A stretch of DNA of 64,000 bases from a virus (taxonomy: Duplodnaviria; Heunggongvirae; Uroviricota; Caudoviricetes), in IMG/VR virus record IMGVR_UViG_3300025364_000002. The stretch is one strand, 5' to 3'. Made by a program: the position numbers and the translations under genes. Shown here piece by piece: positions 2,654 through 55,218 of the stretch (the stretch's first letter is position 1; every line of letters starts with the position of its first letter). The notes under the pieces were generated by a model. It had not been told where the DNA came from, did not search any database, and was given only the letters and a program-made list of their open reading frames with translations.

Positions 2654-3877
2654 TCAGTTTTCAAGGTGTTGCAAAACCGTATCGAGGAAGCTGTTTGACC
2701 AACCACCATCAACATGCCGCTTTGACTGAATCCAATCGACAAGACCGCTTACACGGCCCTGGTACTGCTCCATCATCGGCGCCATCCATCCCTTTCGGGC
2801 CTGAACAGCAAGCGCAAACATCTTACGATGCTCCTTGGAGCCCTTCTCATGGATCCAACCCCGACTTTCGTTCCATGCTGCAACCTCTGCAAGACAAGCC
2901 TCGTAAACATCACGATAGTTTGCCACCAGGTCACGGAATGATGCCTGCAACTTGTGTGCCCGATCCACAACGTGGTCCGGGAATAGCGGCAGTGCATCGT
3001 CGAGCTTCTCCAAAAGAAGCAACTCCACGAGTCCCCGAGGAGACTTCAATACCGAGTCACGAACCTTGTTCAGGGCAAGATAGCCGGCATTCTTAATCTT
3101 GATACGGCGAAAATGCTGGTCGCAGACCACAATTCCTTCGTGCTTTATCGGATCACATGAAGAAACAAAATCAACAAGTTCAGAAACTGAACCAAAACGA
3201 TAACGCTCTGCTGTTGGCGTCTTCACCTGAGCTTGAACAAAGGCCGGACGAAGTTCCTTACCTGTTGCCGTTTTGCGAGCAGCAAGCAAAGTAATGCTGT
3301 GTCCTTCATATTCAACAACGATACGATTCGCAGGACTGGTTAATTCAAACATGTAAGTTGTGTCACGAAATAGTTGTGCTGATGTCCACGATTCAAAATC
3401 TTTGCCGACAGTTTCTTCTAATGCTTTCTCAAAAAGGGTGCGAAAAGTATATTCACCAGATCCATCCACTGGAAGGTTTGCTTCTGGCAATGAGCGAGTT
3501 GCAACATGCCATTCATTCTTCACATCATCATAATAAACGATACAAAGCGTTCCGTCCATCTTTTCATAGAAGGAAGTTGCCGGATGATTAAAATCAACTT
3601 CGGCAGCCGCAGACTGTCCATAGTTGAAAAAACGATCAAATGATCGAGCCAATATAACTGTATCACCAATTGGACGAGTCAAATCAATCAACTCTTGAAT
3701 TTTGGTTGGTCGAAGAATAAGACCACGGCACTGCTGTGCCAGTAAGTCATCTTCACGAGATTCAATATGGTCATAGTTCAATGAAAACTTGTACTCGTGC
3801 ACACGAGCTTTGACGCCATGCTCACGCTCCAAGTCTTCAAGAGACTTGGTTTTCAAATACTCACGAACAAAAACCAT
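2654..3877 (-). CDS. ATP-dependent RNA ligase, Rnl1-like (covalent nucleotidyltransferase superfamily)
   Basis: Motif I KxDG (EKMDGT), motif IV EGIVV, motif V KIKN in correct order in a 407-aa protein. Confidence 0.75.
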   Translation of the reverse strand: MVFVREYLKTKSLEDLEREHGVKARVHEYKFSLNYDHIESREDDLLAQQCRGLILRPTKIQELIDLTRPIGDTVILARSFDRFFNYGQSAAAEVDFNHPATSFYEKMDGTLCIVYYDDVKNEWHVATRSLPEANLPVDGSGEYTFRTLFEKALEETVGKDFESWTSAQLFRDTTYMFELTSPANRIVVEYEGHSITLLAARKTATGKELRPAFVQAQVKTPTAERYRFGSVSELVDFVSSCDPIKHEGIVVCDQHFRRIKIKNAGYLALNKVRDSVLKSPRGLVELLLLEKLDDALPLFPDHVVDRAHKLQASFRDLVANYRDVYEACLAEVAAWNESRGWIHEKGSKEHRKMFALAVQARKGWMAPMMEQYQGRVSGLVDWIQSKRHVDGGWSNSFLDTVLQHLEN

Positions 3878-5443: not shown

Positions 5444-5914
5444 TTAGGTATTAATTGGAATCCCTGCTTTGATTAGTCTTTCGAATAATTTCATATTGTA
5501 GTGCTTATAGGAACACTCATCCCTAAGTAAAGCTTGGGCATTTACCCACATTGGCAACCCTTCACGGGTCATGCAATGCAATTTGCCGCCAACAATTTTT
5601 TGTGCAAAAAAAGTAAAAGATATCATTGTCCGACCAAGTCCAACATACAGAGGAATGAGAGAACTTTTTTCTACTAAAATACCAGTCTCTTCAAAACACT
5701 CTCGAACAGCAGCATCTTTTGCGGTTTCTTTTACTTCTAAATCTATTTTGCCGCCCGGCAATCCAATGTTTTCAAATTCTTTTCTTTTTGTTATTGCAAG
5801 TATGGAACCGTCCCCACTTGGATTTAGAACCAAAACACAGGCTGACTTTGCGTTAATGAGACCTTCATCAATTTCATTTTCGGTCATAAATGTATTGATA
5901 TTTAATCTATTCAC
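5444..5914 (-). CDS. Nudix hydrolase
   Basis: Nudix box GGKIDLEVKETAKDAAVRECFEETGI (Gx5Ex7REUxEExGU). Confidence 0.8.
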   Translation of the reverse strand: MNRLNINTFMTENEIDEGLINAKSACVLVLNPSGDGSILAITKRKEFENIGLPGGKIDLEVKETAKDAAVRECFEETGILVEKSSLIPLYVGLGRTMISFTFFAQKIVGGKLHCMTREGLPMWVNAQALLRDECSYKHYNMKLFERLIKAGIPINT

Positions 5915-7726: not shown

Positions 7727-8017
7727 TCAATCTTCTTCGTCCTGATCGGATGATTCATCTGCTTCCCTTTCTACTCTATTGCCATCCTTGAAAGCTTCAG
7801 CTGTACGTTCATTCATCAAACGAAGATCTTCCATGGTAATACTTGGATGGTGCTTTTCCAAATAACCTTTAATTGCTCCATAAAGATCGGAAAGTTCTGT
7901 TAGAAGCATGATTTCCACACCTTGTTCTTTGGCATCCAGTGCTTCTATCATCTCTTCTTTGATTTTAGAGAAGTCGCCGTATTTGCCACGAGGTATTTTT
8001 CTTTTATGATACCCCAT
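7727..8017 (-). CDS. MazG-like nucleotide pyrophosphohydrolase (small, all-alpha)
   Basis: EExxE...ELSDLYG pattern (IKEEMIEALDA...ELSDLYGAI), typical of the MazG/HisE fold. Confidence 0.45.
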   Translation of the reverse strand: MGYHKRKIPRGKYGDFSKIKEEMIEALDAKEQGVEIMLLTELSDLYGAIKGYLEKHHPSITMEDLRLMNERTAEAFKDGNRVEREADESSDQDEED

Positions 8018-8338
8018 TTATCCACCCATTTTCTCGTATTCGGACCAGTATGCCTCCTCAATCGGATCAGGAATGGCAGTTGAACCTTGCTCATATCCGT
8101 TTTCGTTGAGCCATTTTTCTACTCTACTCCACTCGTCAAGTTTAATTAAACCATCAAATTTTCCACCACCAACCCGGTTGGTTATGAATTTAATTTTATT
8201 GTCAATCATCCACTGGTAAAAGAGCGTGCAATCTTGATGATGTTGTTTGTTAACCTTATATGGGTCCCGCTCTGGAGAAGCTACTGTAATCCAAATATAG
8301 GCACCAGCCTCCCACTTAACACTTTTCTTTTCACTCAT
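8018..8338 (-). CDS. Hypothetical protein
   Basis: 106-aa ORF. Confidence 0.45.
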   Translation of the reverse strand: MSEKKSVKWEAGAYIWITVASPERDPYKVNKQHHQDCTLFYQWMIDNKIKFITNRVGGGKFDGLIKLDEWSRVEKWLNENGYEQGSTAIPDPIEEAYWSEYEKMGG

Positions 8339-8856: not shown

Positions 8857-9492
8857 TTACATATCATCATCAAATTCCTCATCATCTTGTTCAAAGTCAT
8901 CGTAATCCTCAATGAAATCCTCGATACGGATAAATACAACCTTGACACCGACGATTTGTCCACTGTTGTCTCGTGATACATAGCAATCATATGCACCGTC
9001 GCCGAACCCCGATGAAGAAACAACTCCACCATCTAAGACGCCGGCGCCAAGAGCTGATAAAGTAGTCTCACAGGCATTATCATACCAACCACCATCGCCA
9101 TATTCGTCTTGCCCACCACCAAATTTAGCTACATCATAGATGCCAGCTTGACCCGAGTCAACGCCAACAGTAATATCGGTTTTTTCTGAAAAACCCATGT
9201 TTTGTGAATAATGATCAAGGTGAACAGCTTGTACAGACCAGCAGCGATTGCCCCAATCTGTCTTGCCTTTCTGAACAAAACCTTTCCAAATTCCGTTCTT
9301 AACATTACCCAAAGCGCCTGCACACCAAGTACCTGGCGAATAACAAGGATCGGAAACAACAAGCTTTCCTGAGTCGACATTAAACGTCCCAAGCTCAATT
9401 GTTTTTTCGGGGAAATATCGTGGATGTGTAGTATAGACCATTTTCATTCTCCAACAGGAAAGATTGTTCCTACAGGGGCAGGCTGCCGCCAA
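8857..9492 (-). CDS. Hypothetical Gly/Asp-rich protein with acidic C-terminal tail
   Basis: 211-aa ORF; C-terminus EDFIEDYDDFEQDDEEFDDDM. Confidence 0.5.
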   Translation of the reverse strand: MAAACPCRNNLSCWRMKMVYTTHPRYFPEKTIELGTFNVDSGKLVVSDPCYSPGTWCAGALGNVKNGIWKGFVQKGKTDWGNRCWSVQAVHLDHYSQNMGFSEKTDITVGVDSGQAGIYDVAKFGGGQDEYGDGGWYDNACETTLSALGAGVLDGGVVSSSGFGDGAYDCYVSRDNSGQIVGVKVVFIRIEDFIEDYDDFEQDDEEFDDDM

Positions 9493-9878
9493 GGCGGCTC
9501 GTCGCTGTCTTTAAACAGCCAAACCTCCTCTCCAAACTCATTTGTGAGCGGGAAATTAAATTCACATTCCATTAATGTTTGGATTTTTTGAAGGACATAA
9601 TCTTGCCAAAAACTTACGATAATTTCTCGACTTTCGAGAAGCTCTTTAGTTTCCAAAGTAGGCTCAATGTGATATTCACCATATTCGTCTAGCTTCAGAA
9701 TCCATTTTGCATTAAATGCAATATCTGGCACATATTCGCTTTGAACATAATTTAATTCGCAAATTTGAACATAGGCACGGTCATAATATGACTCTGTGAA
9801 ATCTTCACAGTTGCCCAGGGCGTTTGAGACACGGCCGTCCAAGTTGACAAAATCACATTTTCCAATCTTGTATCCCAT
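9444..9878 (-). CDS. Hypothetical protein
   Basis: 144-aa ORF. Confidence 0.45.
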   Translation of the reverse strand: MGYKIGKCDFVNLDGRVSNALGNCEDFTESYYDRAYVQICELNYVQSEYVPDIAFNAKWILKLDEYGEYHIEPTLETKELLESREIIVSFWQDYVLQKIQTLMECEFNFPLTNEFGEEVWLFKDSDEPPWRQPAPVGTIFPVGE

Positions 9879-13109: not shown

Positions 13110-14525
13110 TTACAATAGTGTTGGAAATAGAACTACATCACGGAGAGTGGTTTGGTTAGTCATAATGGCAACAAATCTGTCCACTCCCATTCCCAAGCCT
13201 GAACAAGGTGGCATGCCATATTCCATGCACTCAAGAAAATCTTCCTCAAGCATCATGGCCTCGTCATCGCCGTCCTCACGGGCAGCCATCTGTTCCTCCA
13301 ACAACTGTCGCTGTAGAACAGCGTCAGTAAGCTCCGTGTAACACTTCACAAGCTCCCAGCCATTGACAATAAACTGCCACTGCTCGACCGTGCGGCCGTC
13401 TTCGCTTCGCTGTGCGAGAGGACTCATGTGAGCCGGGTAATCCTTGAGGAAAATCGGCTGAACAAGGTTTGGCCGCACCTTCTCCTTAAACATTTCGTCG
13501 ATTTCCTTTGCAGAACTCAACGACCAGGGCGAAATTCCAGTATATTGCTCAAATACCGCAGCATAAGACCTTACCGGAGGATCGGTAAAATCAAGCTTGG
13601 TCCCCTGATATTCGACAATCATCCTCTTAATAAGAGGAGAAGCGGGATCGTTTGAATATTCATGACCGGCCGCAAAGAAAAGGTAAGACAAAAGCATCTT
13701 AAACAACTCAAGGTTGTCCATATAACTCATGTAAGCGCCATACCACTCAACCGAGGTAAACTCCTGCAAGTGGGAAGGATCGACCCCTTCATTGCGAAAG
13801 TTCTTTCCGATCTCATACACTCGATCAAAAGAAGCTGCAACAGCACGCTTCAAGTAAGTCTCAGGTGCAATACGAAGATAAAGATCGGCATCCAGTGCAT
13901 GATGATGCGTCTGAAAAGGACGAGCCTGGGCTCCTGAAGCCCGAGTCTGTAAGATCGGGGTTTCCACTTCCATGAAACCGTAGCGCTCCAGAAACTTACG
14001 AAGCTCCGAAACAATCCGAGAACGGGTCACGAAAACCTGCTTCACATCAGGGTTCATGACAATATCAAGGTAACGCTTACGAAGACGTAGCTCCGGATCA
14101 ACAATTCCATCAACCTTATTTGGGAAGGGATGGATTGGATCACGGAGAACCTTGAAAGCACGGTTTACCAAAACCGTCTTCTCGCCAGTAGTGGAAGTCC
14201 ACATTTCACCTTCAATGGTGATAATACTGCCCATCTTTACAGCCTTCATCCACCCCTTGAAGCTTTCGGGGGTTTCACGCTTGTTGAAACAAAACTGAAT
14301 CTTTCCAGACTGATCGACAAGCTTTCCGAAAGCAATGGAGCCAAGTCGTCGAAAATTAACAACCCGACCCGCAAGAGTAACAGCGTGGCCGTCCCTAAGC
14401 TCAAGAGCATTGCTGGCCATCCAAGTTTGGTAGACGCCCTTTTCCACAAACTCCGAAAACTTCGGCTTGCGGACGGTCTCGGCCAACTGTTCAAGAGTAC
14501 CTTCTTCATTACTTAGAGTAGACAT
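13110..14525 (-). CDS. lysS: Lysyl-tRNA synthetase, class II (N-terminal OB anticodon-binding domain plus class IIb catalytic core)
   Basis: Class IIb motif 2 KNFRNEGVD...EFTSVEWYGAY; 471 aa; strong SD (AAGGGAGAGA) upstream. Confidence 0.8.
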   Translation of the reverse strand: MSTLSNEEGTLEQLAETVRKPKFSEFVEKGVYQTWMASNALELRDGHAVTLAGRVVNFRRLGSIAFGKLVDQSGKIQFCFNKRETPESFKGWMKAVKMGSIITIEGEMWTSTTGEKTVLVNRAFKVLRDPIHPFPNKVDGIVDPELRLRKRYLDIVMNPDVKQVFVTRSRIVSELRKFLERYGFMEVETPILQTRASGAQARPFQTHHHALDADLYLRIAPETYLKRAVAASFDRVYEIGKNFRNEGVDPSHLQEFTSVEWYGAYMSYMDNLELFKMLLSYLFFAAGHEYSNDPASPLIKRMIVEYQGTKLDFTDPPVRSYAAVFEQYTGISPWSLSSAKEIDEMFKEKVRPNLVQPIFLKDYPAHMSPLAQRSEDGRTVEQWQFIVNGWELVKCYTELTDAVLQRQLLEEQMAAREDGDDEAMMLEEDFLECMEYGMPPCSGLGMGVDRFVAIMTNQTTLRDVVLFPTLL

Positions 14526-19749: not shown

Positions 19750-20478
19750 TCAGTTGTATTCTGTTCCGCCCTTACGGGTGAGGTAATCACCGCTAACAGA
19801 CTTTAGCTGAACACGGCCAATTTCTTCGCTCCAGCGTTCTACCGTAGGTCGAACAACAACACCCTCACGGATATGCATTTCCTTACCGGAAATAGTCTCG
19901 AAGCCGTCAGTGTACTCGTACAAAACCTTCTTCGAGAAGGGCCCACGGTAAAGCACCGGAACACGCTGAAGACCAAGTCTCTTGCAAGCCGCATCAAGCT
20001 CAGAGTCGTTCAAATAACTGCCAGACCCTGGACGTCCAACATAAATATCAAATACTCTAAAACCGATCTCGACGTCCTTGTCGGCAGAACTGCCATAAGA
20101 AAGGTCCTGAACACCACGTCCAAAAATCTCTCCAAGAACGTAAACCGGCTGTGGATCGAAATCGTGTTTTAGCTGATGACCAAAAGCAAATGAAATACGG
20201 TTGTCCATGTTGTAGTGTCGAGCGACACGCACGTATAGATTCGTCTTGTTGGCTTCGGCATCATACTTCATCGCCAGTCCACGAGCCGAAAGACCCTTGG
20301 ATGAGATAATGAGACGGCCCTCCTCGGGATGGGCATCCCTCGGCGGCATAAGGCCAATCATACACCAGGTGTTATGAACAACAATGCCTTCAGCAATATA
20401 GTTGTTGTTGCCACCATCAATCTCTAAATCATAGAGATCACTATCACTTTCAACATACTCAATCTTAACACAGCGCAT
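19750..20478 (-). CDS. C-terminal half of a fractured Rnl2/Rnl5-family RNA ligase: 36-aa IntC (split-intein C fragment) followed by the C-extein
   Basis: N-terminus MRCVKIEYVESDSDLYDLEIDGGNNNYIAEGIVVHN|T is intein blocks F/G ending HN plus nucleophile T. The extein carries ligase motif III VYVLGEIFG, motif IV EGVVVR and motif V LKSVS. It is in the same frame as ORF 20773..21567. Confidence 0.8.
   Translation of the reverse strand: MRCVKIEYVESDSDLYDLEIDGGNNNYIAEGIVVHNTWCMIGLMPPRDAHPEEGRLIISSKGLSARGLAMKYDAEANKTNLYVRVARHYNMDNRISFAFGHQLKHDFDPQPVYVLGEIFGRGVQDLSYGSSADKDVEIGFRVFDIYVGRPGSGSYLNDSELDAACKRLGLQRVPVLYRGPFSKKVLYEYTDGFETISGKEMHIREGVVVRPTVERWSEEIGRVQLKSVSGDYLTRKGGTEYN
20371..20478 (-). other. 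IntC, split-intein C-terminal fragment (36 aa)
   Basis: Length and sequence style match natural IntC fragments (e.g. DnaE IntC, 36 aa, ending ...N). Confidence 0.75.
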
Positions 20479-20772: not shown

Positions 20773-21567
20773 CTACATGATTGGACTTTCAATATCTTCA
20801 TCAGGCAAAAGTTTGCCAGCTTCCACCCACATTTGTCGGTCACGTGAATAAACGGGGTGATCCTCGGTTAAGGTGAGAGTAGAACCGTTTTCTAAGGTAA
20901 GCTTTACCCATTTTTTATCTTCACTGTTTAGCCGACGCATGCGACCAGTAATAGGTCGCTCAATATATTCCTTGCTTTGTTCATTATAAGATAAAACCGA
21001 CTGAATTGTTTTATCAGCCACTACTTCTGCGATAGACCGCTCGCTTCCATCTACAAGTCGGACCATACTTGCTTCATGCAAGCATCCATGAAGTTTCTCA
21101 GTGAAAACAACCTCTTCACCTTCCTCAAGAATGTGAGGAAAACGCTTAAAATTTTCGATATCGTACTTCAAGGTACGGTCCTGACCAGCAGCGAACACCT
21201 CACCGGAAAGATGGGCCGGAATTGGAGGCTCCCACTTGGTAATTCCAAGAATATTAGCAACATCAGCACCCTCTTGCCACTCAGGACGTGCAGGATACAC
21301 AAGTCCCTGTGAAAGGATGCCACGAAGACGAATGGCCTTTACACGATTCTTTGCCTTTCCGGCAAGCTTACCCTCAAGACCCATTTCACGGAGGAGAGCC
21401 TGAGGAACGACAGCCTGTTCTGGAATGTAGGCAACGAGATCACCGCTCTTAAACTGGTCCTTGCGGACAATTGCTTGGTAATCGCCCACCTGGGCGAGTT
21501 CTAAAGCATCAGCATTGGGGTGTTCAAGAACAGTAATCCGTTCGACAGTTACAGAAAAAGTTGACAT
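20773..21567 (-). CDS. N-terminal half of the fractured RNA ligase: OB-like N-domain, then the nucleotidyltransferase motif I, then a 103-aa IntN
   Basis: ...FTEKLHG|CLHEASMVRLVDGSE...TLTLTEDHPVY...LLPDEDIESPIM*. KxHG is the ligase lysine-adenylylation motif. C1 plus TxxH (block B) is an intein N-fragment. The stop codon directly follows IntN. Confidence 0.8.
   Translation of the reverse strand: MSTFSVTVERITVLEHPNADALELAQVGDYQAIVRKDQFKSGDLVAYIPEQAVVPQALLREMGLEGKLAGKAKNRVKAIRLRGILSQGLVYPARPEWQEGADVANILGITKWEPPIPAHLSGEVFAAGQDRTLKYDIENFKRFPHILEEGEEVVFTEKLHGCLHEASMVRLVDGSERSIAEVVADKTIQSVLSYNEQSKEYIERPITGRMRRLNSEDKKWVKLTLENGSTLTLTEDHPVYSRDRQMWVEAGKLLPDEDIESPIM
20776..21084 (-). other. IntN, split-intein N-terminal fragment (103 aa)
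   Basis: Begins with Cys after KLHG; has block A (CLHEASMV) and block B (TLTLTEDHP). Confidence 0.75.
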
Positions 21568-33337: not shown

Positions 33338-33889
33338 TCATTGAATTTCTCCGAGTGCTAACTTGAGGATATAACGAGTAATCTCTCGGTCTTCTTCCCT
33401 GCGCTTTTGCTGTGCGTAATCCAATCCAAGTCTGTTGTAGTCCTCTTCATCCAATTTCGAAACCTTTTTGTGATATCTTTTTACCTTGTTTTCAAATGAA
33501 GTGTAATGTTCGGTTGGATTGACCAACGACAAAAATGCTTCATTTTCTCCTCGGCGCCAACGATTTGTTGTGGTGGATGCGGTACAAGATATAACCTTGC
33601 AATTAGGCCAGTTTCTAGCGCCCGCCATGCACAATAAATCTGCACCTCGGGCACTTACTGCCTTTTGCTTATATTCGCTTCCAAGCTCTTTACCTTTGGG
33701 AGACACATAAGCTCGATAAATAAAACTCTGGCTTTCCTCGTATGAATATGGCACATGAATAGCATGCAAGATCCTACTTGCACCAAGAGTCTGGGCGAGT
33801 TGATGAATACCAATTCCACCACCAGTTACCACAAAAGCAAGTTTGGGACCTTGGTAACGATGTACGAAATCATCAAATACGTCTTGCAC
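33338..33889 (-). CDS. Hypothetical protein with N-terminal Gly-rich Rossmann-like loop (FVVTGGGIGIHQ)
   Basis: 183-aa ORF; GGG loop; translationally coupled (overlapping) with the ARH gene. Confidence 0.45.
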   Translation of the reverse strand: MQDVFDDFVHRYQGPKLAFVVTGGGIGIHQLAQTLGASRILHAIHVPYSYEESQSFIYRAYVSPKGKELGSEYKQKAVSARGADLLCMAGARNWPNCKVISCTASTTTNRWRRGENEAFLSLVNPTEHYTSFENKVKRYHKKVSKLDEEDYNRLGLDYAQQKRREEDREITRYILKLALGEIQ

Positions 33890-34613
33890 ACTTTTCTCGC
33901 AATCTTTCCAGTTTTTCGTCTAGGCTTCGAAGGTAGTCTAATCCATACGGACCATTTTCTAAACCTTCATAAAGATGCTGTGGTAGGTCGTTTTCAATTT
34001 CTTTACAACAAGAACCAATGCCCAGCGCCATGGCCGCAATTGAATCTACGTCGCCCGTATAATCAATACACTCTTTAAGGCATTCGCTCAAAGAATTATT
34101 TCTCAATACTGATGAAATTGCTGCCTTGACACAGGGAATAGCATCACTAGTACAACGTTTTCCTACCGGCCAAAGATCTTTTTTATCGTTGAAAATTCTA
34201 CTTGAACCACTACCAAGTACAAGGAAATCAACCAAATTATTCTTTTTGCCATCATTGTAAAGAAAATAGTGTGTAGCCAAAGCAACTGCTTGCGAGGAAG
34301 CAATTGCATCAGGCGTATCGTGAGTCACTTGAGCTTGCATTCTAGAAAATGTTAAGACTTTATAAACGTTCGGTAGGTATCCGATCGAACACGATCTCAT
34401 TGCTGCGCCGCATTTATTTGACTTCTTCGACAGCTTGGCAAGCAACTCTTTACCAGACTCAACTTGATCTAAGATAGCTTGAAAACGACGTGAATATGCA
34501 TTTCTTGCATCACGTTTATACACCTCCACCCATTTGTTTGCGAGTTTGAGCGGAAGTGTATTTGGATCAAAATGGTCGTTTTCCAAAAGATACTCTGTTA
34601 CACCAATTGACAT
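33873..34613 (-). CDS. ADP-ribosylglycohydrolase (DraG/ARH family)
   Basis: C-terminal signature YTGDVDSIAAMALGIGS corresponds to the GGDTDT(I)AA(I)AGA metal-binding motif of the family. Confidence 0.7.
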   Translation of the reverse strand: MSIGVTEYLLENDHFDPNTLPLKLANKWVEVYKRDARNAYSRRFQAILDQVESGKELLAKLSKKSNKCGAAMRSCSIGYLPNVYKVLTFSRMQAQVTHDTPDAIASSQAVALATHYFLYNDGKKNNLVDFLVLGSGSSRIFNDKKDLWPVGKRCTSDAIPCVKAAISSVLRNNSLSECLKECIDYTGDVDSIAAMALGIGSCCKEIENDLPQHLYEGLENGPYGLDYLRSLDEKLERLREKCARRI

Positions 34614-35986: not shown

Positions 35987-37573
35987 CTAACCTCGATATC
36001 GATTAATCAGGGACTCCACCTCAGTCTGGAGTAAATCACTTCTTCGACCCGCAGAAAATGGCATTTCATCGAATTCACGGATTACACGAGCCTCACAGGT
36101 CATGAAATCATCAGTGAAGCCAGGGCCGAAAGGTTCATCAGAAGTGCCATCGTAATAGGTAACCAATGCATCATCACCAAGTTCGCCAGGTGCCGCAAGA
36201 GTGACCCCAGAGGTAAGGGCAATATCATCACGGAGAACCATGCATTCTGGGAGAGTCTGCTTACCAGGAGAATTGCTCAACTTGATAACTGGACGATCGT
36301 CGTTGCCGACAGCACAGAGAGCAAATTTGGTGCTCATGTGGTCCCTGTTGATATTGTTACGAAGATGCCCGCCAATACTGAAAATACCACATCGCCATGG
36401 AACAAAACCGGCCGCAAGAGCTGCGTCGGTAATTTGAAGAACACTATCAAACGATTCACCGTTACCAACAATAAATCGAAGCGTGGTAGAAACATGACGT
36501 GTGACACCATCAGCACACAAGTGCTCAGCCATAAGCCCAGCCTGATGTGCCTTTTGTAGAGTACCAATCACCATATCTGTCGAATCGCCTGAATCAGGAC
36601 GGGCAACAACGGTTCTTCCAGAGCCATCCGCCTGAGCCCTAAGGGCAAGGGGGATAAGGTGTTTCTCAAGCGCAGCCCAATAATCATAACAATCACCAAC
36701 CATGCTGAGTAATTCGTGATTGTCAGCAGTATCGTACATGTTCTCATAACAGTCGCCTTCGACTGCATAACCCTGCACGATGCGATGCGCAAGAGCTTTC
36801 ACCGAAGAGCCAAAAGCAGCTGGTGCGCCATTTTTCCAGTTCTGGAAAGCAGCACGGAACGTGTCCGTACCAAACCAGACATAGTTGTGAACCCGACCCA
36901 CCAATTCCGATTCCATTGGAGATGCTGCTGCCCTGTCGCCGAAATCATGAATCATGAGTCGGGCAAAAAACATGCACTCCTCGTCGCTAACCGAGTCAGG
37001 CTCAAATTTCCTGATGAGATTGTAGGCATACTTCAAAAAGTGTCGAGCGGCGGTCAAACGCTCCGTGGCAGCCCAAACATGCAGCAGGGTGGACTCGAAC
37101 CAAGGAACCAGCGGTCCAAACCCAGGCTCTGTAGCCTCCACCCTGAGGAATGGCTCGTGCGGATAAATTACAGAGCCTTCGGGCATTCCAACGACCTTGA
37201 GTGGAAGGTAGCCTCCGTATTCCTTGACGACTCGTCGCCACATTTCCTCAGGAAATTCGAAATCGTCAAAAGATCCGTCGTACTTTGCCTTTCGGCCCTT
37301 CAAAAATTCGATAGTCTCATCGATTTCGGAATTGGTGATCGGATCGTAAAAAAGCAAGTCGCAAAGCTGTTGCAAACCAGCAAAGACAATACGCTGGTCT
37401 TCAGGCGAATAAAACGGCTCATGTGCATGAGGAAACTTCCTGAAAGTACCGTAATACTTGGAATTTTCCGTAGCCTCTTGGCTCTCGAAGGTAAATCCGT
37501 TAATGGTGTAAGCGTCACTCCAGAGCATTCTGGGTGTTCTATGATATCTTCTTGCGGGTAGTTTCTTTGCCAT
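35987..37573 (-). CDS. nadV: Nicotinamide phosphoribosyltransferase (NadV/NAMPT-like, type II PRTase family)
   Basis: 528 aa with family-typical segments (IHDFGDR, long central PRTase core); GC-rich relative to flanks. Confidence 0.75.
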   Translation of the reverse strand: MAKKLPARRYHRTPRMLWSDAYTINGFTFESQEATENSKYYGTFRKFPHAHEPFYSPEDQRIVFAGLQQLCDLLFYDPITNSEIDETIEFLKGRKAKYDGSFDDFEFPEEMWRRVVKEYGGYLPLKVVGMPEGSVIYPHEPFLRVEATEPGFGPLVPWFESTLLHVWAATERLTAARHFLKYAYNLIRKFEPDSVSDEECMFFARLMIHDFGDRAAASPMESELVGRVHNYVWFGTDTFRAAFQNWKNGAPAAFGSSVKALAHRIVQGYAVEGDCYENMYDTADNHELLSMVGDCYDYWAALEKHLIPLALRAQADGSGRTVVARPDSGDSTDMVIGTLQKAHQAGLMAEHLCADGVTRHVSTTLRFIVGNGESFDSVLQITDAALAAGFVPWRCGIFSIGGHLRNNINRDHMSTKFALCAVGNDDRPVIKLSNSPGKQTLPECMVLRDDIALTSGVTLAAPGELGDDALVTYYDGTSDEPFGPGFTDDFMTCEARVIREFDEMPFSAGRRSDLLQTEVESLINRYRG

Positions 37574-42483: not shown

Positions 42484-43246
42484 CTAAACGCTTTTTCATA
42501 ATTGCTACAGCATCTGGGTTTTCATCAACCAATGTTACGTTTCGTCCATGCATAGCCCCCGCCTCGCCAAGAGTGCCTGAACCCGCAAAGAAATCCAAAA
42601 GGTGTTCTCCAGGATTTGAGTGTACTTTTACTATGCGTTCGATTATAGCCATTGGTTTTTGAGTTGGGTAGCCTAGTCTTTCTTTACCGTTTGTTGGAAC
42701 GATAGTGTTCCACCAAACATCTGTCGGTGTTTTGCCTCGCTTAGCCTTCTCGGCACCAACAAGACCCGGAGCCATATATGGGATGCGATCTATCGCATCG
42801 TAGTTATAAGTATATTTTTTCAAGTCTTTTACATACCAAAGAATGTTATCATGTTTACAGGGCCACTTGGTTTTAGGTCTTCCGCCATAATCATACGCCC
42901 AAATTATTTCATTTTTGAACTTTTCTCTACCAAAAATTTTATCACAAAGCACTTTTACATAGTGAATTTCACGGTAATCCATATGAATAAAAAATGAACC
43001 ATCATCTGTAAGCAATCTTTTTGCTTCTTCAATTCTTGGCTTTATCCAATCTATAAAATCATCGAATTTATCTTTGTATGAACCATGATGACTTGATTGA
43101 ACCTTTTTTGTATTAAACGGAGGATCTATTACAATTAGATTAAATTTTTTATCAGGCAACGATCGCAATATTGGCAAATTGTCCCCTTGATAAATTTTAA
43201 TTGTTGGCATACAAAAAGTTTCCTTCTTTACTGTTTCTTTTGCCAT
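42443..43246 (-). CDS. DNA methyltransferase (N6-adenine/N4-cytosine class, DPPF motif)
   Basis: IVIDPPFN catalytic motif and C-terminal AdoMet-binding FFAGSGT. Confidence 0.8.
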   Translation of the reverse strand: MAKETVKKETFCMPTIKIYQGDNLPILRSLPDKKFNLIVIDPPFNTKKVQSSHHGSYKDKFDDFIDWIKPRIEEAKRLLTDDGSFFIHMDYREIHYVKVLCDKIFGREKFKNEIIWAYDYGGRPKTKWPCKHDNILWYVKDLKKYTYNYDAIDRIPYMAPGLVGAEKAKRGKTPTDVWWNTIVPTNGKERLGYPTQKPMAIIERIVKVHSNPGEHLLDFFAGSGTLGEAGAMHGRNVTLVDENPDAVAIMKKRLDGYGTLQMQTFHP

Positions 43247-43973
43247 TGATGATAGCTGAAATTACTGGCTGTGGAATTCCTAATACTTTTGCTGCTTCAT
43301 ATTGGCTTTCAAAAAATTCGGATGAACCATCGGAACGAATGTAAACTATTCGTCTTTTATTTCGTTTGGGGCTTTGTGCACGAGACATAGCTTTTTCAAC
43401 ATCTTCCATTTTATGAACAAAGGTCCAACCTTTAGCATATGTGGCACGACCTTTTAGAACATTTCTAATTGCTTTTTCGTTACAACCAAGAGCTTTTGCT
43501 GCTTTTTTTTGTGCGGCAAATTTTTTTATTTCTTTTGTTTTAACATTTATAGCTATCACTGCTTTACTGCCTGGTCTATTTGCAGCGATTTTTTTACAAG
43601 TTTCTAGGGGTAACTTCTTACCCAATTTCCTTTTACGCTGCTTTTCCTTTGTTTTTTTAGAAGTCTTTACTCCCTTTCGTCCACCTCGACCACCCTTATC
43701 AGAATTAATCATATTTAAGTTCGGCCAGAATTGTTGAATGTATTCAAATTCAGCTATGTAAGCCTCGTCTTCAGTTGAGAACTCTTTTATTAATTCTATT
43801 GATATACTATCTTTATATTTTTTAAGCCAATTCAACTTTCTTTTACGTTTTTTATCATAAAAATGTTGTTTTAACCGTTTTTCTAAAGTTTGGCCTGTAA
43901 CTCCGATATAAAATTTAGGACTTTTCGATGAAATGATTTTATAAAGCTTGTGCATATTAATATGTACGCACAT
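43197..43973 (-). mobile_element. GIY-YIG homing endonuclease with C-terminal NUMOD-like DNA-binding repeats (probable true start at 43955)
   Basis: KLYKIISSKSPKFYIGVTGQTLEKRLKQH (GIY-YIG core with catalytic R...H); repeated AAKxLG...(I)xNxLKG helix motifs at C-terminus. Confidence 0.75.
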
Positions 43974-45883: not shown

Positions 45884-46309
45884 CTAAGCAACATATACTA
45901 AACCATAATATTTGCCGACAGTTCTCTTGAACTTCCATTCGCCAAGCAAAACTCCATAAGTGCAGGCAGACTTTTGAAGAGCATGGAGAAAATCGGAATC
46001 ACGAATATAAAACAACTGTTTCGTTTCTGTATGTTCCAGAATTAACTGAGTGGTGGAATTGCAACTAATAAATCGTTCAACTTTGAAAGCGGCTTTGAAT
46101 GGAGAATTATCTTTCCAGGTGACATTTAGATTATTATATCTTTTTCTGTTGACATAGTCAAAGTAACTAACGACGGAAACGTTCTTACCGCACGTCCACG
46201 GGACTCCCTTTTGGGTCCATGGGATTTGATAATCTTCACTTTTTTTATTCATTTGTTTCGAGCTGCCCCCTAACCATCCTATCTTTTCGACCTTTATATT
46301 TTCGGTCAT
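45884..46309 (-). CDS. Paralogue family member A (family defined in this window: ...KPFKAxF...LLGEWxFKR...)
   Basis: Shares SPFKAAFKVERF...GVLLGEWKFKRTVGKYYGLVYVA with 49740..50144 and 50125..50535. Confidence 0.5.
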   Translation of the reverse strand: MTENIKVEKIGWLGGSSKQMNKKSEDYQIPWTQKGVPWTCGKNVSVVSYFDYVNRKRYNNLNVTWKDNSPFKAAFKVERFISCNSTTQLILEHTETKQLFYIRDSDFLHALQKSACTYGVLLGEWKFKRTVGKYYGLVYVA

Positions 46310-47165
46310 AGGATTCTAACTGACGCAAATCCAAATTTGCATCCTTGCTTTTCATTGTTCCACCGCTCAGAAACAATTCAATCATTCTATCCTTTGTAAG
46401 AATTTTGGTTGTTTTGTCATCTTTCGAGGGACCCCATCCAAGCCTTGCCAAGAAATTAAGCATTGCATCAGGATCATATCCACTGTCAATATACAATTGA
46501 AATGTTGAAGCTTGTTCTCTTTTTGAGAGTTTTTTTCCCTGATGACGCAAAAGTCCAACGTGACTATATTTTGGCAAAACGCCGCCAAGGAGGTCATACA
46601 ACAAAACCTGCTTTGCTGTATTTGTAATGTGGTCCACGCCTCGAATTATATGATTGATGTCCATTTCAATATCATCAACTACAGAAGCAAAATGATAAGT
46701 GGGACTACCGTCAGATTTGATCAATGTTAGATTATCAAACCCCCGAACATTGTCCGCCCGAATGGGAATGTTGCCAGCAATATCATCAACCCAATAACTT
46801 CTGGAAAGAAAATCACCAACAAGATTTAAATGAACTCGCTTACCATCTCGAACGGCTTTGCCACTGTCTACCAGAAACGACACGGCAGCATCATAATGCT
46901 CCATTCTTTTACTCTGGTAGTCTAAACCATCCCAATCAAGCCCAAGCCACTCAAGGCTTTTCAAAAATTGGTCAGCCCATCTCTGCTCTGACCTTTCAAG
47001 ATCGGTGTCATCAATCCTAACAAAAAACTTACCACCAGAAGCTCTGGCGGCAAGCCAATTGAAATAAGCAGTTCTCATTGTACCCAAATGAGTAGGGCCT
47101 GTAGGTGAAGGTGCGATTCTAGTAAAAAACTTCATATTGCGCCACTTTGTCCAAAAAATGTCCAA
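46245..47165 (-). CDS. Truncated class-I glutamyl-tRNA-synthetase catalytic core, glutamyl-Q tRNA(Asp) synthetase (YadB/GluQ)-like
   Basis: HIGH-region RIAPSPTGPTHLGTMRTA and KMSKS-like KLSKR; 306 aa with no anticodon-binding domain. Confidence 0.7.
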   Translation of the reverse strand: MDIFWTKWRNMKFFTRIAPSPTGPTHLGTMRTAYFNWLAARASGGKFFVRIDDTDLERSEQRWADQFLKSLEWLGLDWDGLDYQSKRMEHYDAAVSFLVDSGKAVRDGKRVHLNLVGDFLSRSYWVDDIAGNIPIRADNVRGFDNLTLIKSDGSPTYHFASVVDDIEMDINHIIRGVDHITNTAKQVLLYDLLGGVLPKYSHVGLLRHQGKKLSKREQASTFQLYIDSGYDPDAMLNFLARLGWGPSKDDKTTKILTKDRMIELFLSGGTMKSKDANLDLRQLESYDRKYKGRKDRMVRGQLETNE

Positions 47166-47398
47166 GCTACATTTTCCCCGGAGAGTTTTGGTTCGCCTTC
47201 GTCGAAGGTATTTCTAATAGGCAACTCATGAACCTCTGCTACAACAGAGCAATGAATGGCTTGTGCATGATCAATAGCTACATCTAGACTATCACAAGGC
47301 CCTTGAAAATTTAAACCTTCGTAAGTATGCTCAAATACAAGGCAAAATAACATTATACCATCTTCAGATGGCAGAAATCTTCTTCTGTCATCCAGCAT
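47132..47398 (-). CDS. Hypothetical protein
   Basis: 88-aa ORF. Confidence 0.35.
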   Translation of the reverse strand: MLDDRRRFLPSEDGIMLFCLVFEHTYEGLNFQGPCDSLDVAIDHAQAIHCSVVAEVHELPIRNTFDEGEPKLSGENVAWTFFGQSGAI

Positions 47399-48387: not shown

Positions 48388-48422
48388 TTTTTTTGCTTTC
48401 CAATTTGTTTCATCTTTTTAGC

Positions 48423-48496
48423 GAGACCTGTGGGATTTGAACCCACATCACTCCGGGTTAAAGCCGGCCGCATTACCAATTTTCTGCCAAGGTCCC
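48423..48496 (-). tRNA. tRNA with anticodon UUA (ochre-type suppressor tRNA; type I, 74 nt)
   Basis: Hand-folded: acceptor GGGACCT/AGGTCTC (one G-U), U8, D-loop with GG, anticodon stem CCGG/CCGG with 7-nt loop C-U-U-U-A-A-C (U33, anticodon UUA, A37), 5-nt variable loop, T-arm GTGGG-TTCAAAT-CCCAC, discriminator G. Confidence 0.65.
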
Positions 48497-48754: not shown

Positions 48755-49111
48755 CTAACTTGTTATTTTTTTGTAACCCCTTCCTGCTACTTTCAAGTTT
48801 GCGCAAAGTTTAGCAGTTGCTTCACTTGGCTCGATTGTCAAGGCTGTGTACTGATTGATATCAGGCTCATAGAAAAGTGAATGCCTTAGTCCCTGGCTTT
48901 CGGTCAAGCAAACAAATGCCTTCAATGCCGCTTCGTTTTTAACTCCCAAAACTACAATGGTGTTTGAATTAGTATACCACTTTCGCTCCTCTTCGGGGAA
49001 GTCGTGTGTAAACTGATCCTTGGCATGAATGCTTTGTGCGATTTGATAGCCAGGCGAAATGTCCTGGCGAACCAATACATACATTTTCATTGTTGGTTGA
49101 CTTTGCATCAT
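48755..49111 (-). CDS. Hypothetical protein
   Basis: 118-aa ORF. Confidence 0.45.
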   Translation of the reverse strand: MMQSQPTMKMYVLVRQDISPGYQIAQSIHAKDQFTHDFPEEERKWYTNSNTIVVLGVKNEAALKAFVCLTESQGLRHSLFYEPDINQYTALTIEPSEATAKLCANLKVAGRGYKKITS

Positions 49112-49739: not shown

Positions 49740-50144
49740 TTAGGCTAAGCAAACACTTAGGTATCGTCCTGATTTACGGAAAACCCATTCACCCACAAAC
49801 ACACCAGCAATAGCCGGCAGCGTTTTAAGTAGTTGAACAAAGTCTTCTTCCTTCATGACATATTCATAACCGTTTTCGGTATCATGAAGAACTGCTTGAC
49901 AACTCGTACTCTGGTTTGAACTGTAAAGATGCGAAAGACTGAGCCCTGCCTTAAACGGCTTGTTTTCTTTCCATTCAATTGGTTCGGATTTGCGAATGTA
50001 GCCATACCCTCCAATATTTGGATGCGCCATGTCGCAAGTTTCAGAATCTTTTTTGGGGCATTGACGTGGAACACATCCATGCTTTCCTACCACGTGAGGA
50101 ACCAAAAAATTTTTATCGTCTTTTTCAGTCATTGTTAAATTCAT
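49740..50144 (-). CDS. Paralogue family member B
   Basis: EPIEWKENKPFKAGLSL...GVFVGEWVFRKSGRYLSVCLA. Confidence 0.5.
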   Translation of the reverse strand: MNLTMTEKDDKNFLVPHVVGKHGCVPRQCPKKDSETCDMAHPNIGGYGYIRKSEPIEWKENKPFKAGLSLSHLYSSNQSTSCQAVLHDTENGYEYVMKEEDFVQLLKTLPAIAGVFVGEWVFRKSGRYLSVCLA

Positions 50145-53892: not shown

Positions 53893-53942
53893 GCTTTATT
53901 CCATAAAAAAGCCACACCATATAGGTGTGGCCTATTATTTAT

Positions 53943-54029
53943 TGGACCCGATCGGAATTGAACCGATGTCCTCAAGATCGCCTAAAAAAACTTCTACGTT
54001 ACCTAGTTTGATTTTCAGATTACCGGTCC
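53943..54029 (-). tRNA. tRNA-like element (87 nt): T-arm ATCGG-TTCAATT-CCGAT, acceptor GGACCGG/CGGGTCC (one mismatch), discriminator A; internal arms not resolved
   Basis: Reverse complement folded by hand; possibly a type-II tRNA or degenerate tRNA. Confidence 0.3.
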
Positions 54030-54399
54030 GAGGTATCAGACAACCAACCGGGTTCTTTCATTTGAAATCTTGATCAGACAGCCAATAGAAATCTAACTCT
54101 AGTCTAATCCAGTCCTAATAACGACGCCTTATAGAATGCAAGGACACTCAAGCTATAAGACGGCTCTCATCAAGCAGCGAGAGCAAGAGGTGCATTGTCT
54201 GCATTTATAATCGTTTATTGGATTTAAGTGGTTCTAAACACCCACCGTAACGCCATTTTTTCTTCTTACCCCAAGTCGAAACCAGTACGGGCCCATGTCA
54301 AAGAACAATACCTTGAGAGTATACCTAGTAAGTATTAGGTTGTAAACTGCTTGACTTCTTTCTTTTTGGTGTCATTTACTTCAAAATCTTGCTAAAAAT

Positions 54400-55218
54400 T
54401 CATTTTAGCATCTTTGCCATATTAGAATAAAGCACGTGTGAATCATTGTCAGACAACCCTGATTGCTGACCATCATTGAGTTCGATAACGATCCACTCGC
54501 CGTTTTCAGTTTTTGCAATGTCGACCACAAAGAAACGAACCCTCGGGGCAATGATAGAAATAACTTTGTTTAAGAAGTCCCTTGGAACAAGATTTGCGTC
54601 TGGTTTATATCCCACTTCTTCTTCAATGTATTCGGTGTGCGAAGACCAATAAAAAGCTCCTGAAATCACCTGCCCATCAAGCACAAAAAAGCGGTACTCT
54701 TCAGAAATAGGCAATCCCTGAAGACCATCAGCAAGTTTCCTAAGTGGAACATACTGCCTTATATAAATTTGTTGTGCTCCCACGTGTCCATCAGCAGCAA
54801 GGCGGCCGTAGACTTCTCCAGCCTCAAATTTGTCTTTAGCAAACATGTGTGTGCGCCAATTGAATTTCATTGAATTTGTTTGCCCTTTTAAGACAAACGG
54901 ACCCTCGGTCGGAATTTGGTCTAGATAAAACCAAGTACGTGGAGTGTATTCACCAAGGTCATAATACCAATTTCTCAAATCAGCAACATAACAATGTTGC
55001 CTATAAGTGTTGAGAAGCTTTCCACCCATACACTCAACGTCAGCTTCGAGTTCTTTATACCATGGAAGTGCCGAAAATCTTGGAATAACAAGGTTATCGT
55101 TTTTAACATGAGTTCGCTGGGTAATCACGGGAAAATACTCCTCGCAAACTTTCATTTCATGTTCTTCAGCTAAGGAAGCTCTGAATAGGACTACAGGTTT
55201 CAATTGAAATTTTCCCAA
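54400..55218 (-). CDS. ATP-grasp fold enzyme
   Basis: FVLKGQTNS..., EYRFFVLDGQVISGAFY, WIVIELNDGQQSG resemble the ATP-grasp B/C-domain signature segments. Confidence 0.5.
   Translation of the reverse strand: MGKFQLKPVVLFRASLAEEHEMKVCEEYFPVITQRTHVKNDNLVIPRFSALPWYKELEADVECMGGKLLNTYRQHCYVADLRNWYYDLGEYTPRTWFYLDQIPTEGPFVLKGQTNSMKFNWRTHMFAKDKFEAGEVYGRLAADGHVGAQQIYIRQYVPLRKLADGLQGLPISEEYRFFVLDGQVISGAFYWSSHTEYIEEEVGYKPDANLVPRDFLNKVISIIAPRVRFFVVDIAKTENGEWIVIELNDGQQSGLSDNDSHVLYSNMAKMLK

Follow-up and report, generated by a model that had tools for sequence, protein, structure and literature searches.

Which reaction does a phage obtain from a glutamyl-tRNA synthetase (GluRS) that ends where the anticodon-binding part should begin? 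The question is raised by the window, a 64,000-nucleotide stretch of DNA from the IMG/VR virus record IMGVR_UViG_3300025364_000002 (Caudoviricetes), the minus strand of which carries a gene for a shortened GluRS homologue of about 300 amino acids. An original prediction, made from the letters of this DNA, had assigned the product to glutamyl-Q tRNA(Asp) synthetase (GluQRS, also YadB or GluQ), which glutamylates queuosine in tRNA-Asp, and had read from this a deliberate reprogramming of tRNA modification. Our analysis revealed instead that the protein, here termed mini-GluRS, is a natural, widespread and selected GluRS consisting of the catalytic core only.

Gene, catalytic core and family

The open reading frame (ORF) listing placed the gene on the minus strand at 46245..47165, with 306 amino acids counted from a TTG codon, the length also given in the original prediction. 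However, an ATG at 47135 overlaps the TGA of an upstream 88-residue ORF (47132..47398, minus strand) in the sequence ATGA, all of the homologues in the alignment begin at the position equivalent to this ATG, and public gene calls on 19 contigs, the longest of 461,030 bp, carry an identical product of 296 amino acids. Since these observations agree, the gene is taken to span 46245..47135 (minus strand; TAA stop at 46245-46247), and translation almost certainly starts from this ATG, so that the protein has 296 rather than 306 amino acids. The 88-residue ORF, which is translationally coupled to the gene via the ATGA, is kept only in the closest relatives. Downstream, a 122-residue ORF (45884..46252, minus strand) overlaps the mini-GluRS stop, with its start lying within ATGAATAA, where it is translationally coupled to that stop; it is unrelated to the anticodon-binding domain. 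In the source annotations, JGI names members of the family 'glutamyl-tRNA synthetase' and the NCBI copies are unnamed.

Pfam assigned a single domain to the 296-residue protein, the Glu/Gln-RS catalytic domain PF00749 (E 6.5e-61), with no Anticodon_2. As originally predicted, both class-I signatures are present, namely the HIGH region PSPTGPTHLGTMRTA at residues 9-23 and the KMSKS-type motif KLSKR at residues 202-206 (K202-L-S-K-R206; 46518..46532, minus strand), of which S204, K205 and R206 are invariant in the family. The HIGH motif itself, H16-L-G-T19 (47079..47090, minus strand), is an HxGT variant in which H16, G18 and T19 are invariant; in the family alignment it takes the form H[LIMF]GT, which falls inside the range of bacterial GluRS (HphiGX, where X = G/N/S/T/L/M; PMC3927822). 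In the motif R40-I-D-D-T44-D45 (47001..47018, minus strand), D42, D43 and T44 are invariant in 37 members, and Thr44 is the GluRS residue which recognises the amino acid and A76. Nine positions (R6, A8, S10, H16, G18, Y147, R165, S204 and K205) are invariant across the family, E. coli GluRS and E. coli GluQRS, and T44 and R206 are invariant within the mini-GluRS family. With the Glu-binding Arg/Tyr/Arg set, HIGH, KLSKR and the A76-contacting Thr all present, the class-I active site is, as judged from its residues, complete. Two substitutions near the catalytic motifs are fixed and family-specific relative to full-length GluRS, these being Glu to Asp42 and Pro to Gly194; at the former position 98% of the family has Asp, whereas 85 of 90 full-length relatives have the usual Glu. 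The AF2 model of the protein had a mean pLDDT of 94.4.

The presumed zinc-binding domain (pZBD) is deleted at residues ~95-125 (46761..46853, minus strand), where alignment with E. coli GluRS and GluQRS leaves ~36 residues of E. coli GluRS, including the Cys/His ligands, without a counterpart; no Cys occurs in aligned residues 95-135 of mini-GluRS, and hidden Markov model (HMM) and PDB matches break into two stretches around the missing insertion. Bacterial GluRS without the pZBD exist as functional wild-type enzymes (PMC4381286), and one of this type, the Methylacidiphilum GluRS (PDB 8jpv), aligns with mini-GluRS in a single stretch. The catalytic domain is closed by a basic motif, L-E-S-Y-D-R-K-Y-K-G-R-K (residues 273-284; 46284..46319, minus strand), beyond which lie a short tail of variable sequence and the stop. 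The family consensus of this motif is L[ED]S[FY]DRKYK[AG][RK]K, with K279 and K281 invariant and D277, R278, Y280 and K284 each conserved in at least 90%. It aligns with ...LLWLNHHYI... of E. coli GluRS, immediately ahead of the C-terminal domain of that enzyme, the AF2 model has a long terminal helix at residues 270-295, and the basic motif may have a role in RNA binding.

The truncation is real and is shared. A word-indexed search returned 7,726 homologues, the best 120 clusters of which (50-100% identity) were all 273-365 amino acids long with PF00749 only, and an exhaustive search with a 37-member profile ranked ~45 short representatives (277-324 amino acids) above any full-length GluRS. 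In all, the architecture of ~280-320 amino acids is common to more than 120 database clusters. All family members finish at the common basic motif and a short variable tail, the stop codons of the orthologues at the equivalent place differ (TAA, TGA or TAG), and dN/dS was 0.10 between mini-GluRS and its closest orthologue, L075. Neither mini-GluRS nor any other member of the family has the anticodon-binding domain PF19269. When the C-terminal domains of the 90 nearest full-length GluRS were made into an HMM and this was run against a six-frame translation of the complete 64 kb, no match emerged (best E 0.97, compared with 8e-51 for the positive control); the few family members with additional C-terminal sequence gave none either, and the earlier statement that the protein has no such domain therefore stands. 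Extensions of 60-200 amino acids do occur at the N- or C-terminus of P0138, P0143 and P0157 (430-499 amino acids), P0127, P0136 and P0069; these gave no Pfam match and are not anticodon-binding domains.

The original prediction had itself allowed for a canonical GluRS with a missed downstream anticodon-binding exon or a frameshift. The first part of this proved correct, in that the best matches are to canonical GluRS, but the second did not: a frameshift or missed C-terminal exon was ruled out by the null result of the anticodon-domain HMM, the unrelated downstream ORF and the shared end with its varied stops. Read-through of the TAA to lengthen the protein was likewise rejected, given an in-frame TGA two codons on and the use of other stops by the orthologues, and no protein partner that could provide anticodon binding in trans was found, the neighbouring ORFs being kept only in the closest clade. 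Members of the family occur on contigs of up to 461 kb and on IMG/VR viral contigs of up to 608 kb, and in the material examined the family is found on huge-phage-like contigs. In phage records the best tblastn match to mini-GluRS, at 34.5% identity, came from an uncultured phage of 635 kb. The literature searched contained no account of a shortened phage GluRS; Al-Shayeb et al. (2020) placed phage GluRS in a tree without remarking on length or truncation.

Descent from GluRS or GluQRS

In gross architecture the protein does resemble GluQRS (~270-310 amino acids, no anticodon-binding domain), as had been observed: like YadB (1nzj, 4a91) it is a catalytic-only GluRS paralogue of ~300 amino acids with HIGH and KLSK motifs. 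The identification as GluQRS, however, was contradicted by the profile comparison that the original prediction had proposed. TIGR00464 (gltX_bact) scored 263.2 bits whereas the best GluQRS model, TIGR03838, scored 170.9 bits, short of its cut-off of 276.7, and the GluQRS models NF004312-NF004315 scored 115-164 bits against cut-offs of 250-453. All five GluQRS equivalog models thus lay 90-340 bits under their cut-offs and, at best, ~90 bits under the GluRS model, and the ranking of GluRS over GluQRS was identical in all 37 family members tested.

Residue signatures gave the same answer. In all GluQRS, the Thr with which GluRS recognises the amino acid and A76 is swapped for Ile, Leu or Val (Ile47; PMC3542578, citing Dubois 2004), whereas Thr44 is invariant in the family, and in the alignment E. 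coli GluQRS reads RIEDID where mini-GluRS reads RIDDTD. The HIGH signatures of the GluQRS subgroups are HxGS, HxGN and HxGH (PMC3542578), but that of the family is HxGT. The zinc motif CxCx(11-28)Yx3C, the pattern which the original prediction had suggested checking, is missing from mini-GluRS because the whole insertion is deleted, although this is not decisive alone since the motif, carried by 46 of 61 GluQRS, is missing from the other 15 too (PMC4381286). After KMSKS comes a segment of GluRS type (...GYDPDAxLNFLxRLGWGP...), for which GluQRS shows no equivalent in the alignment.

A sequence search of the PDB returned GluRS at E 1e-55 and YadB at 5e-26, and Foldseek with the AF2 model placed 42 GluRS chains (TMq 0.78-0.86) ahead of the GluQRS structures 4a91 (0.72) and 1nzj (0.65). 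In a neighbour-joining tree of 138 sequences, a distance method with two GluQRS sequences only, the family came out as a clade of its own (bootstrap 97), lying among the full-length GluRS with GluQRS as root; no split joined it to GluQRS, and its mean distance was 1.20 to GluRS and 1.76 to GluQRS. There was no GluQRS among the 150 best cluster representatives, and the identity of mini-GluRS was 39% to E. coli GluRS over the core and 32% to E. coli GluQRS.

Every test run, by profiles, signature, C-terminal third, fold and tree, favours descent from GluRS. Given the GluRS-type features and the separate clade, the architecture in common with YadB is therefore convergent, the anticodon domain having been lost independently. 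Mini-GluRS resembles bacterial GluRS (GltX) in its Rossmann catalytic fold, HxGT-type HIGH, KLSKR, Glu- and A76-binding residues and RLGW... segment, and the pZBD-deleted GluRS of Methylacidiphilum (8jpv), Akkermansia and phytoplasmas (PMC4381286) in having no zinc-binding insertion (TMq 0.83-0.86). Unlike GltX, it is without the PF19269 C-terminal domain and ends in a basic DRKYKxRK helix, carries the fixed Asp42 and Gly194, scores below the TIGR00464 cut-off, and has its gene in huge phages, where clusters of phage tRNA-Glu genes often adjoin it. Unlike GluQRS, it keeps the Thr, has another HIGH subtype, no CxCx(11-28)Yx3C motif and a GluRS-like C-terminal third, belongs to a separate clade, and is linked to tRNA-Glu rather than tRNA-Asp, without a dksA-type context.

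Neighbouring tRNA genes and the probable substrate

The neighbourhood was counted at 36 non-redundant loci of the family. Genes for tRNA-Glu accounted for 20 of 42 tRNA genes up to 1 kb away but only 4 of the 83 beyond that distance (odds ratio 18, Fisher p 3e-8), a p-value that overstates independence because some of the loci belong to related phages. They lay within 1 kb at 8 of the 36 loci, usually in tandem runs of 2-4 genes (UUC and CUC) directly upstream, whereas tRNA-Asp did so at a single locus. Most of the tRNA-Glu adjacent to family members retain U11-A24, U13.G22 and a 4-nucleotide variable loop, the determinants of tRNA-Glu outside the anticodon (PMC9976931). Across the wide family the only recurrent neighbours were tRNA genes (Glu, then Arg) and other aminoacyl-tRNA synthetases (aaRS), and no neighbouring protein was conserved past the closest clade.

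Some of the neighbouring tRNA genes are unusual. In L018, the tRNA-Glu genes at 8970-9047 (CUC) and 9065-9142 (UUC) have C11-G24 and a 5-nucleotide variable loop in place of the canonical D-helix; this pair, which resembles the type-B tRNA(UUA) described below at 68% identity, would be expected from its sequence to be a poor substrate for canonical GluRS. Odd tRNA-like genes also lie directly upstream of mini-GluRS in L011 (9607-9699), L014 (about 9600-9700) and L015 (9533-9616); one is a 'tRNA-Ile(UAU)' of 93-94 nucleotides whose variable arm is long and which has a G1.U72 pair, and another, of 84 nucleotides, has an anticodon loop that is unassignable or carries an 11-nucleotide insert.

In the window itself the setting is different from the tRNA cluster that had been described beside the gene: three RNA genes are scattered over it, and the single tRNA nearby has the anticodon UUA ('ochre suppressor' according to ARAGORN; 48422..48496, minus strand; Rfam 54.4 bits). 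This gene lies 1.3 kb upstream of mini-GluRS, directly after the gene of a Pth2-type peptidyl-tRNA hydrolase, and its product is a possible partner of mini-GluRS. The other RNA genes of the window are tRNA-Leu(CAA), 19 kb from mini-GluRS, and a transfer-messenger RNA (tmRNA). Extending the window by 10 kb past each end added only tRNA-Gln(CUG) and tRNA-Pro(UGG), so that the RNA genes in ~84 kb comprise tRNA-Leu, tRNA(UUA), tRNA-Gln(CUG), tRNA-Pro and tmRNA. In the window, L070, L073/L074, L075 and L077, one or two tRNA(UUA) genes are found at 0.4-2 kb from the gene, these relatives having 60-100% identity, Pth2 alongside and tmRNA a few kb off (tRNA(UUA) at 5638-5712 and 6135-6209 in L073, 397-470 in L075, and 7978-8053 and 11248-11322 in L077). 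A further relative, L076 (65% identity), has no tRNA near the gene.

All of the tRNA(UUA) genes are without U11-A24, U13.G22 and the 4-nucleotide variable loop. They fall into two sequence types, one of which is closest to phage tRNA-Arg(UCU/CCU), and their acceptor stems and discriminators differ among orthologues; a G2.U71 pair is common to the window tRNA(UUA) and many phage tRNA-Glu but is not kept in the tRNA(UUA) orthologues. The idea that tRNA(UUA) is a mutated tRNA-Glu was not supported, as the D-arm and variable loop are not Glu-like, one type is near tRNA-Arg and G2.U71 is unconserved. Recoding of TAA in the window likewise found no support: TAA ends 39% of its ORFs, the coding density of 0.871 under the standard code did not improve when TAA was read as sense (0.876), and the TAA-ending ORFs have no nearer back-up stops.

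Taking sequence, fold and gene neighbourhood together, we consider that mini-GluRS probably, although by no means certainly, charges tRNA-Glu without reading the anticodon. The enzyme would activate glutamate and join it as an ester to the 3' end of tRNA-Glu, gripping this tRNA on its acceptor arm and D-helix side by means of the catalytic and stem-contact parts that are retained, perhaps aided by the basic family-specific C-terminal helix, and the anticodon would be left unread. Recognition by canonical GluRS draws strongly on U34 and its modification as well as on U35, C36 and A37 (PMC9976931). Without an anticodon domain, recognition would be by the acceptor/D-helix side only, and such an enzyme would be indifferent to UUC or CUC and to U34 modification, so that a single enzyme would serve both isoacceptors as well as fresh, hypomodified phage tRNA-Glu, and the supply of Glu-tRNA would stay independent of the host enzyme during infection.

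Several observations weigh against this reading. Given that canonical GluRS leans on the anticodon, an enzyme consisting of the core only might charge tRNA-Glu poorly or unspecifically, and the substitutions at Asp42 and Gly194 are close to the catalytic motifs. The score on TIGR00464 is below the equivalog cut-off of 289.95, with a match to only ~315 of 470 model positions. Adjacency of tRNA-Glu is limited to 8 of the 36 loci, some of which belong to related phages, and tRNA and aaRS genes cluster in huge phages anyway. In the window's own clade there is no tRNA-Glu gene near the gene, UUA tRNAs adjoining it instead, and no tRNA-Glu was found in the ~84 kb around it.

Of the other explanations, the one that deserves most attention, although we regard it as unlikely, is that the core has been recruited elsewhere, so that it glutamylates some other acceptor, be it an RNA (for instance at a different position of a tRNA), a small molecule or else a protein, or acts by binding or as a decoy, for example absorbing a host toxin or regulator that targets GluRS. 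Paralogues of aaRS with the catalytic domain only have often gained new acceptors, GluQRS being an example (other aaRS-like proteins are reviewed in PMC9437257), and such a change would suit the fixed Asp42 and Gly194 beside the active site, the loss of both RNA-positioning modules, the 28 of 36 loci without tRNA-Glu within 1 kb, and the three family members with unrelated C-terminal extensions of 130-200 amino acids. Against it, the Glu-, ATP- and A76-binding residues are all kept, including the Thr lost in GluQRS, and the recurrent neighbours are tRNA genes and aaRS with no conserved protein partner. That the protein is instead a phage GluQRS, activating Glu independently of tRNA and attaching it to queuosine-34 of tRNA-Asp to reprogram tRNA modification, is very improbable. 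The YadB-like architecture, the matches to GluQRS models at E 1e-33 to 1e-50, and the lack of the zinc motif in some known GluQRS would agree with it, but those matches are second-best and below cut-off in all 37 members, the defining Thr replacement is absent with HIGH reading HxGT, the post-KMSKS region, fold and tree all separate the two groups, the tRNA found near the family is tRNA-Glu much more often than tRNA-Asp, and no queuosine-pathway gene was found among the ~45 window proteins scanned. With the evidence pointing to GluRS, the proposed reprogramming of tRNA-Asp modification is unsupported. Least credible of all is a decaying, functionless remnant of a full-length phage GluRS or an artefact of assembly or frameshift, which the conservation data already contradict: the score below the GluRS equivalog cut-off and the match to the 493-position phage GluRS family of PHROGs only as far as position 310 would fit decay, but the identical product on 19 independent contigs, the length and end motif common to more than 120 clusters, the low dN/dS, the invariant catalytic motifs, the differing stop codons at one place and the absence of any anticodon-domain remnant in any frame do not.

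The tRNA(UUA) genes raise a further and very improbable alternative, that of a suppressor pair in which an anticodon-blind enzyme glutamylates the nearby tRNA(UUA), so that UAA (and UAG by wobble) would be read as Glu at some stage of infection. Its attraction lies in the position of tRNA(UUA) in the window and its relatives, which is the upstream spot occupied by tRNA-Glu clusters in distant members, and in the anticodon itself, since UUA is one base from the Glu anticodon UUC, a difference on which an enzyme that lacks the anticodon domain would be unable to discriminate; the L018 tRNA-Glu pair, with its resemblance to the type-B tRNA(UUA), is also without the canonical D-helix determinants. 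A 'code-change module' of suppressor tRNA and aaRS is known, moreover, from phages in which TGA is read as Trp (Borges et al., preprint). That module of the Jade phages is similar in that a phage aaRS stands beside a suppressor-type tRNA in a standard-code region, but it comprises a full TrpRS, a UCA suppressor tRNA and RF1, and TGA is demonstrably recoded there, whereas in the present case neither TAA recoding nor a use of tRNA(UUA) as a GluRS substrate is indicated. None of the tRNA(UUA) carries the determinants of tRNA-Glu and one type is closest to tRNA-Arg(UCU/CCU), their acceptor stems and discriminators vary among orthologues, and TAA usage, coding density and back-up stops in the window give no signal of recoding. 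The adjacency is limited to one clade and may therefore be plain synteny; L076 has no tRNA nearby, and phages are not reported to reassign TAA (Borges et al., preprint). It is correspondingly improbable that mini-GluRS and its flanking tRNA(UUA) form a natural orthogonal pair, placing Glu on an ochre-reading tRNA for stage-specific read-through or reassignment of UAA; in broader terms, the family would then represent a class-I synthetase found in nature which specifies its tRNA wholly without the anticodon.

The phage, its other genes and the meaning of the finding

From the gene content, the IMG/VR relatives and the 461-kb contigs we infer that the source is a huge phage, an assignment made from content because the 64-kb window contains no capsid or terminase gene; no close relative of the window was found among GenBank phages. 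The genes of the window are nearly all small and unidirectional, with many for translation, and its content is typical of huge phages, including LysRS, two RNA ligases, Pth2, an R2K ATP-grasp enzyme, a NAMPT-like enzyme, an ADP-ribosylglycohydrolase, DNA methylases, a GIY-YIG homing endonuclease and a sigma factor. Both PTH2 and R2K have been recorded in jumbo phages (PMC7824862).

The Pth2-type (archaeal/eukaryotic) peptidyl-tRNA hydrolase (48755..49111, minus strand; PF01981, E 1.3e-8) is syntenic with tRNA(UUA) and mini-GluRS in the close clade, and L077 has two copies. The tmRNA (53940-54294, minus strand; Rfam 127 bits), 6.8 kb upstream of mini-GluRS, encodes the tag ADNAPLALAA, and the relatives have this tag or the near variants ANEAPLALAA and ATNEASYALAA. 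The LysRS encoded at 13110-14525 (minus strand; 451 bits on PRK00484, slightly below the cut-off) is a class-II enzyme of full length, OB anticodon domain included, and LysRS homologues lie 4-6 kb from mini-GluRS in L009, L010, L012 and L013. An Rnl2-type RNA ligase is apparently split in two ORFs (19750-20478 and 20773-21567, minus strand), and at the N-terminus of the downstream part there is a trace of an intein splicing domain, which suggests the remnant of an intein or homing element; a separate RnlA-like ligase is encoded at 2654-3877. The GIY-YIG/NUMOD homing endonuclease (43197-43973, minus strand) sits between a DUF3307 gene and an N6/N4 DNA methylase and is not found at the equivalent position in L073 and L075, suggesting a recently mobile element. 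On the minus strand are also a NAMPT-like phosphoribosyltransferase (35987-37573), the ADP-ribosylglycohydrolase (33873-34613) and the R2K ATP-grasp ligase (54400-55218), which together form an NAD/ADP-ribose and peptide-ligase set of the jumbo-phage kind. The 122-residue ORF downstream of mini-GluRS and a 134-residue ORF (49740-50144, minus strand) are paralogues of unassigned function with a common C-terminal ...GEW.F.. motif, and both are kept only in the close clade.

The finding corrects an easy mis-annotation, in that a short GluRS is not equal to GluQRS; with the anticodon domain lost independently, function cannot be read from architecture alone. Mini-GluRS stops at the same domain boundary as the isolated N-domain of E. 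coli GluRS, or 'primordial GluRS(N)', and unlike those laboratory constructs and hypothetical ancestors it is natural, widespread and selected. Residues 1-314 of E. coli GluRS reportedly charge tRNA-Glu weakly. In the T. thermophilus enzyme, residues 1-322 form the N-domain and 323-468 the C-domain, and the ancestral GluRS is held to have been the catalytic domain alone (PMC3927822). The family is thus a living test of the idea of a primordial GluRS with the catalytic domain only, from which even the zinc-binding insertion is gone, and it is relevant to the degree of tRNA specificity that a class-I core attains without the anticodon.

If mini-GluRS does charge tRNA-Glu without reading the anticodon, this would explain how the tRNA-Glu of huge phages (UUC/CUC, probably hypomodified) are charged when host enzymes are limiting or under attack. 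An anticodon-independent synthetase beside its own tRNA genes would be a part sought for orthogonal translation systems, and the presence of tRNA(UUA) in place of tRNA-Glu in this lineage offers a lead into phage suppressor biology.

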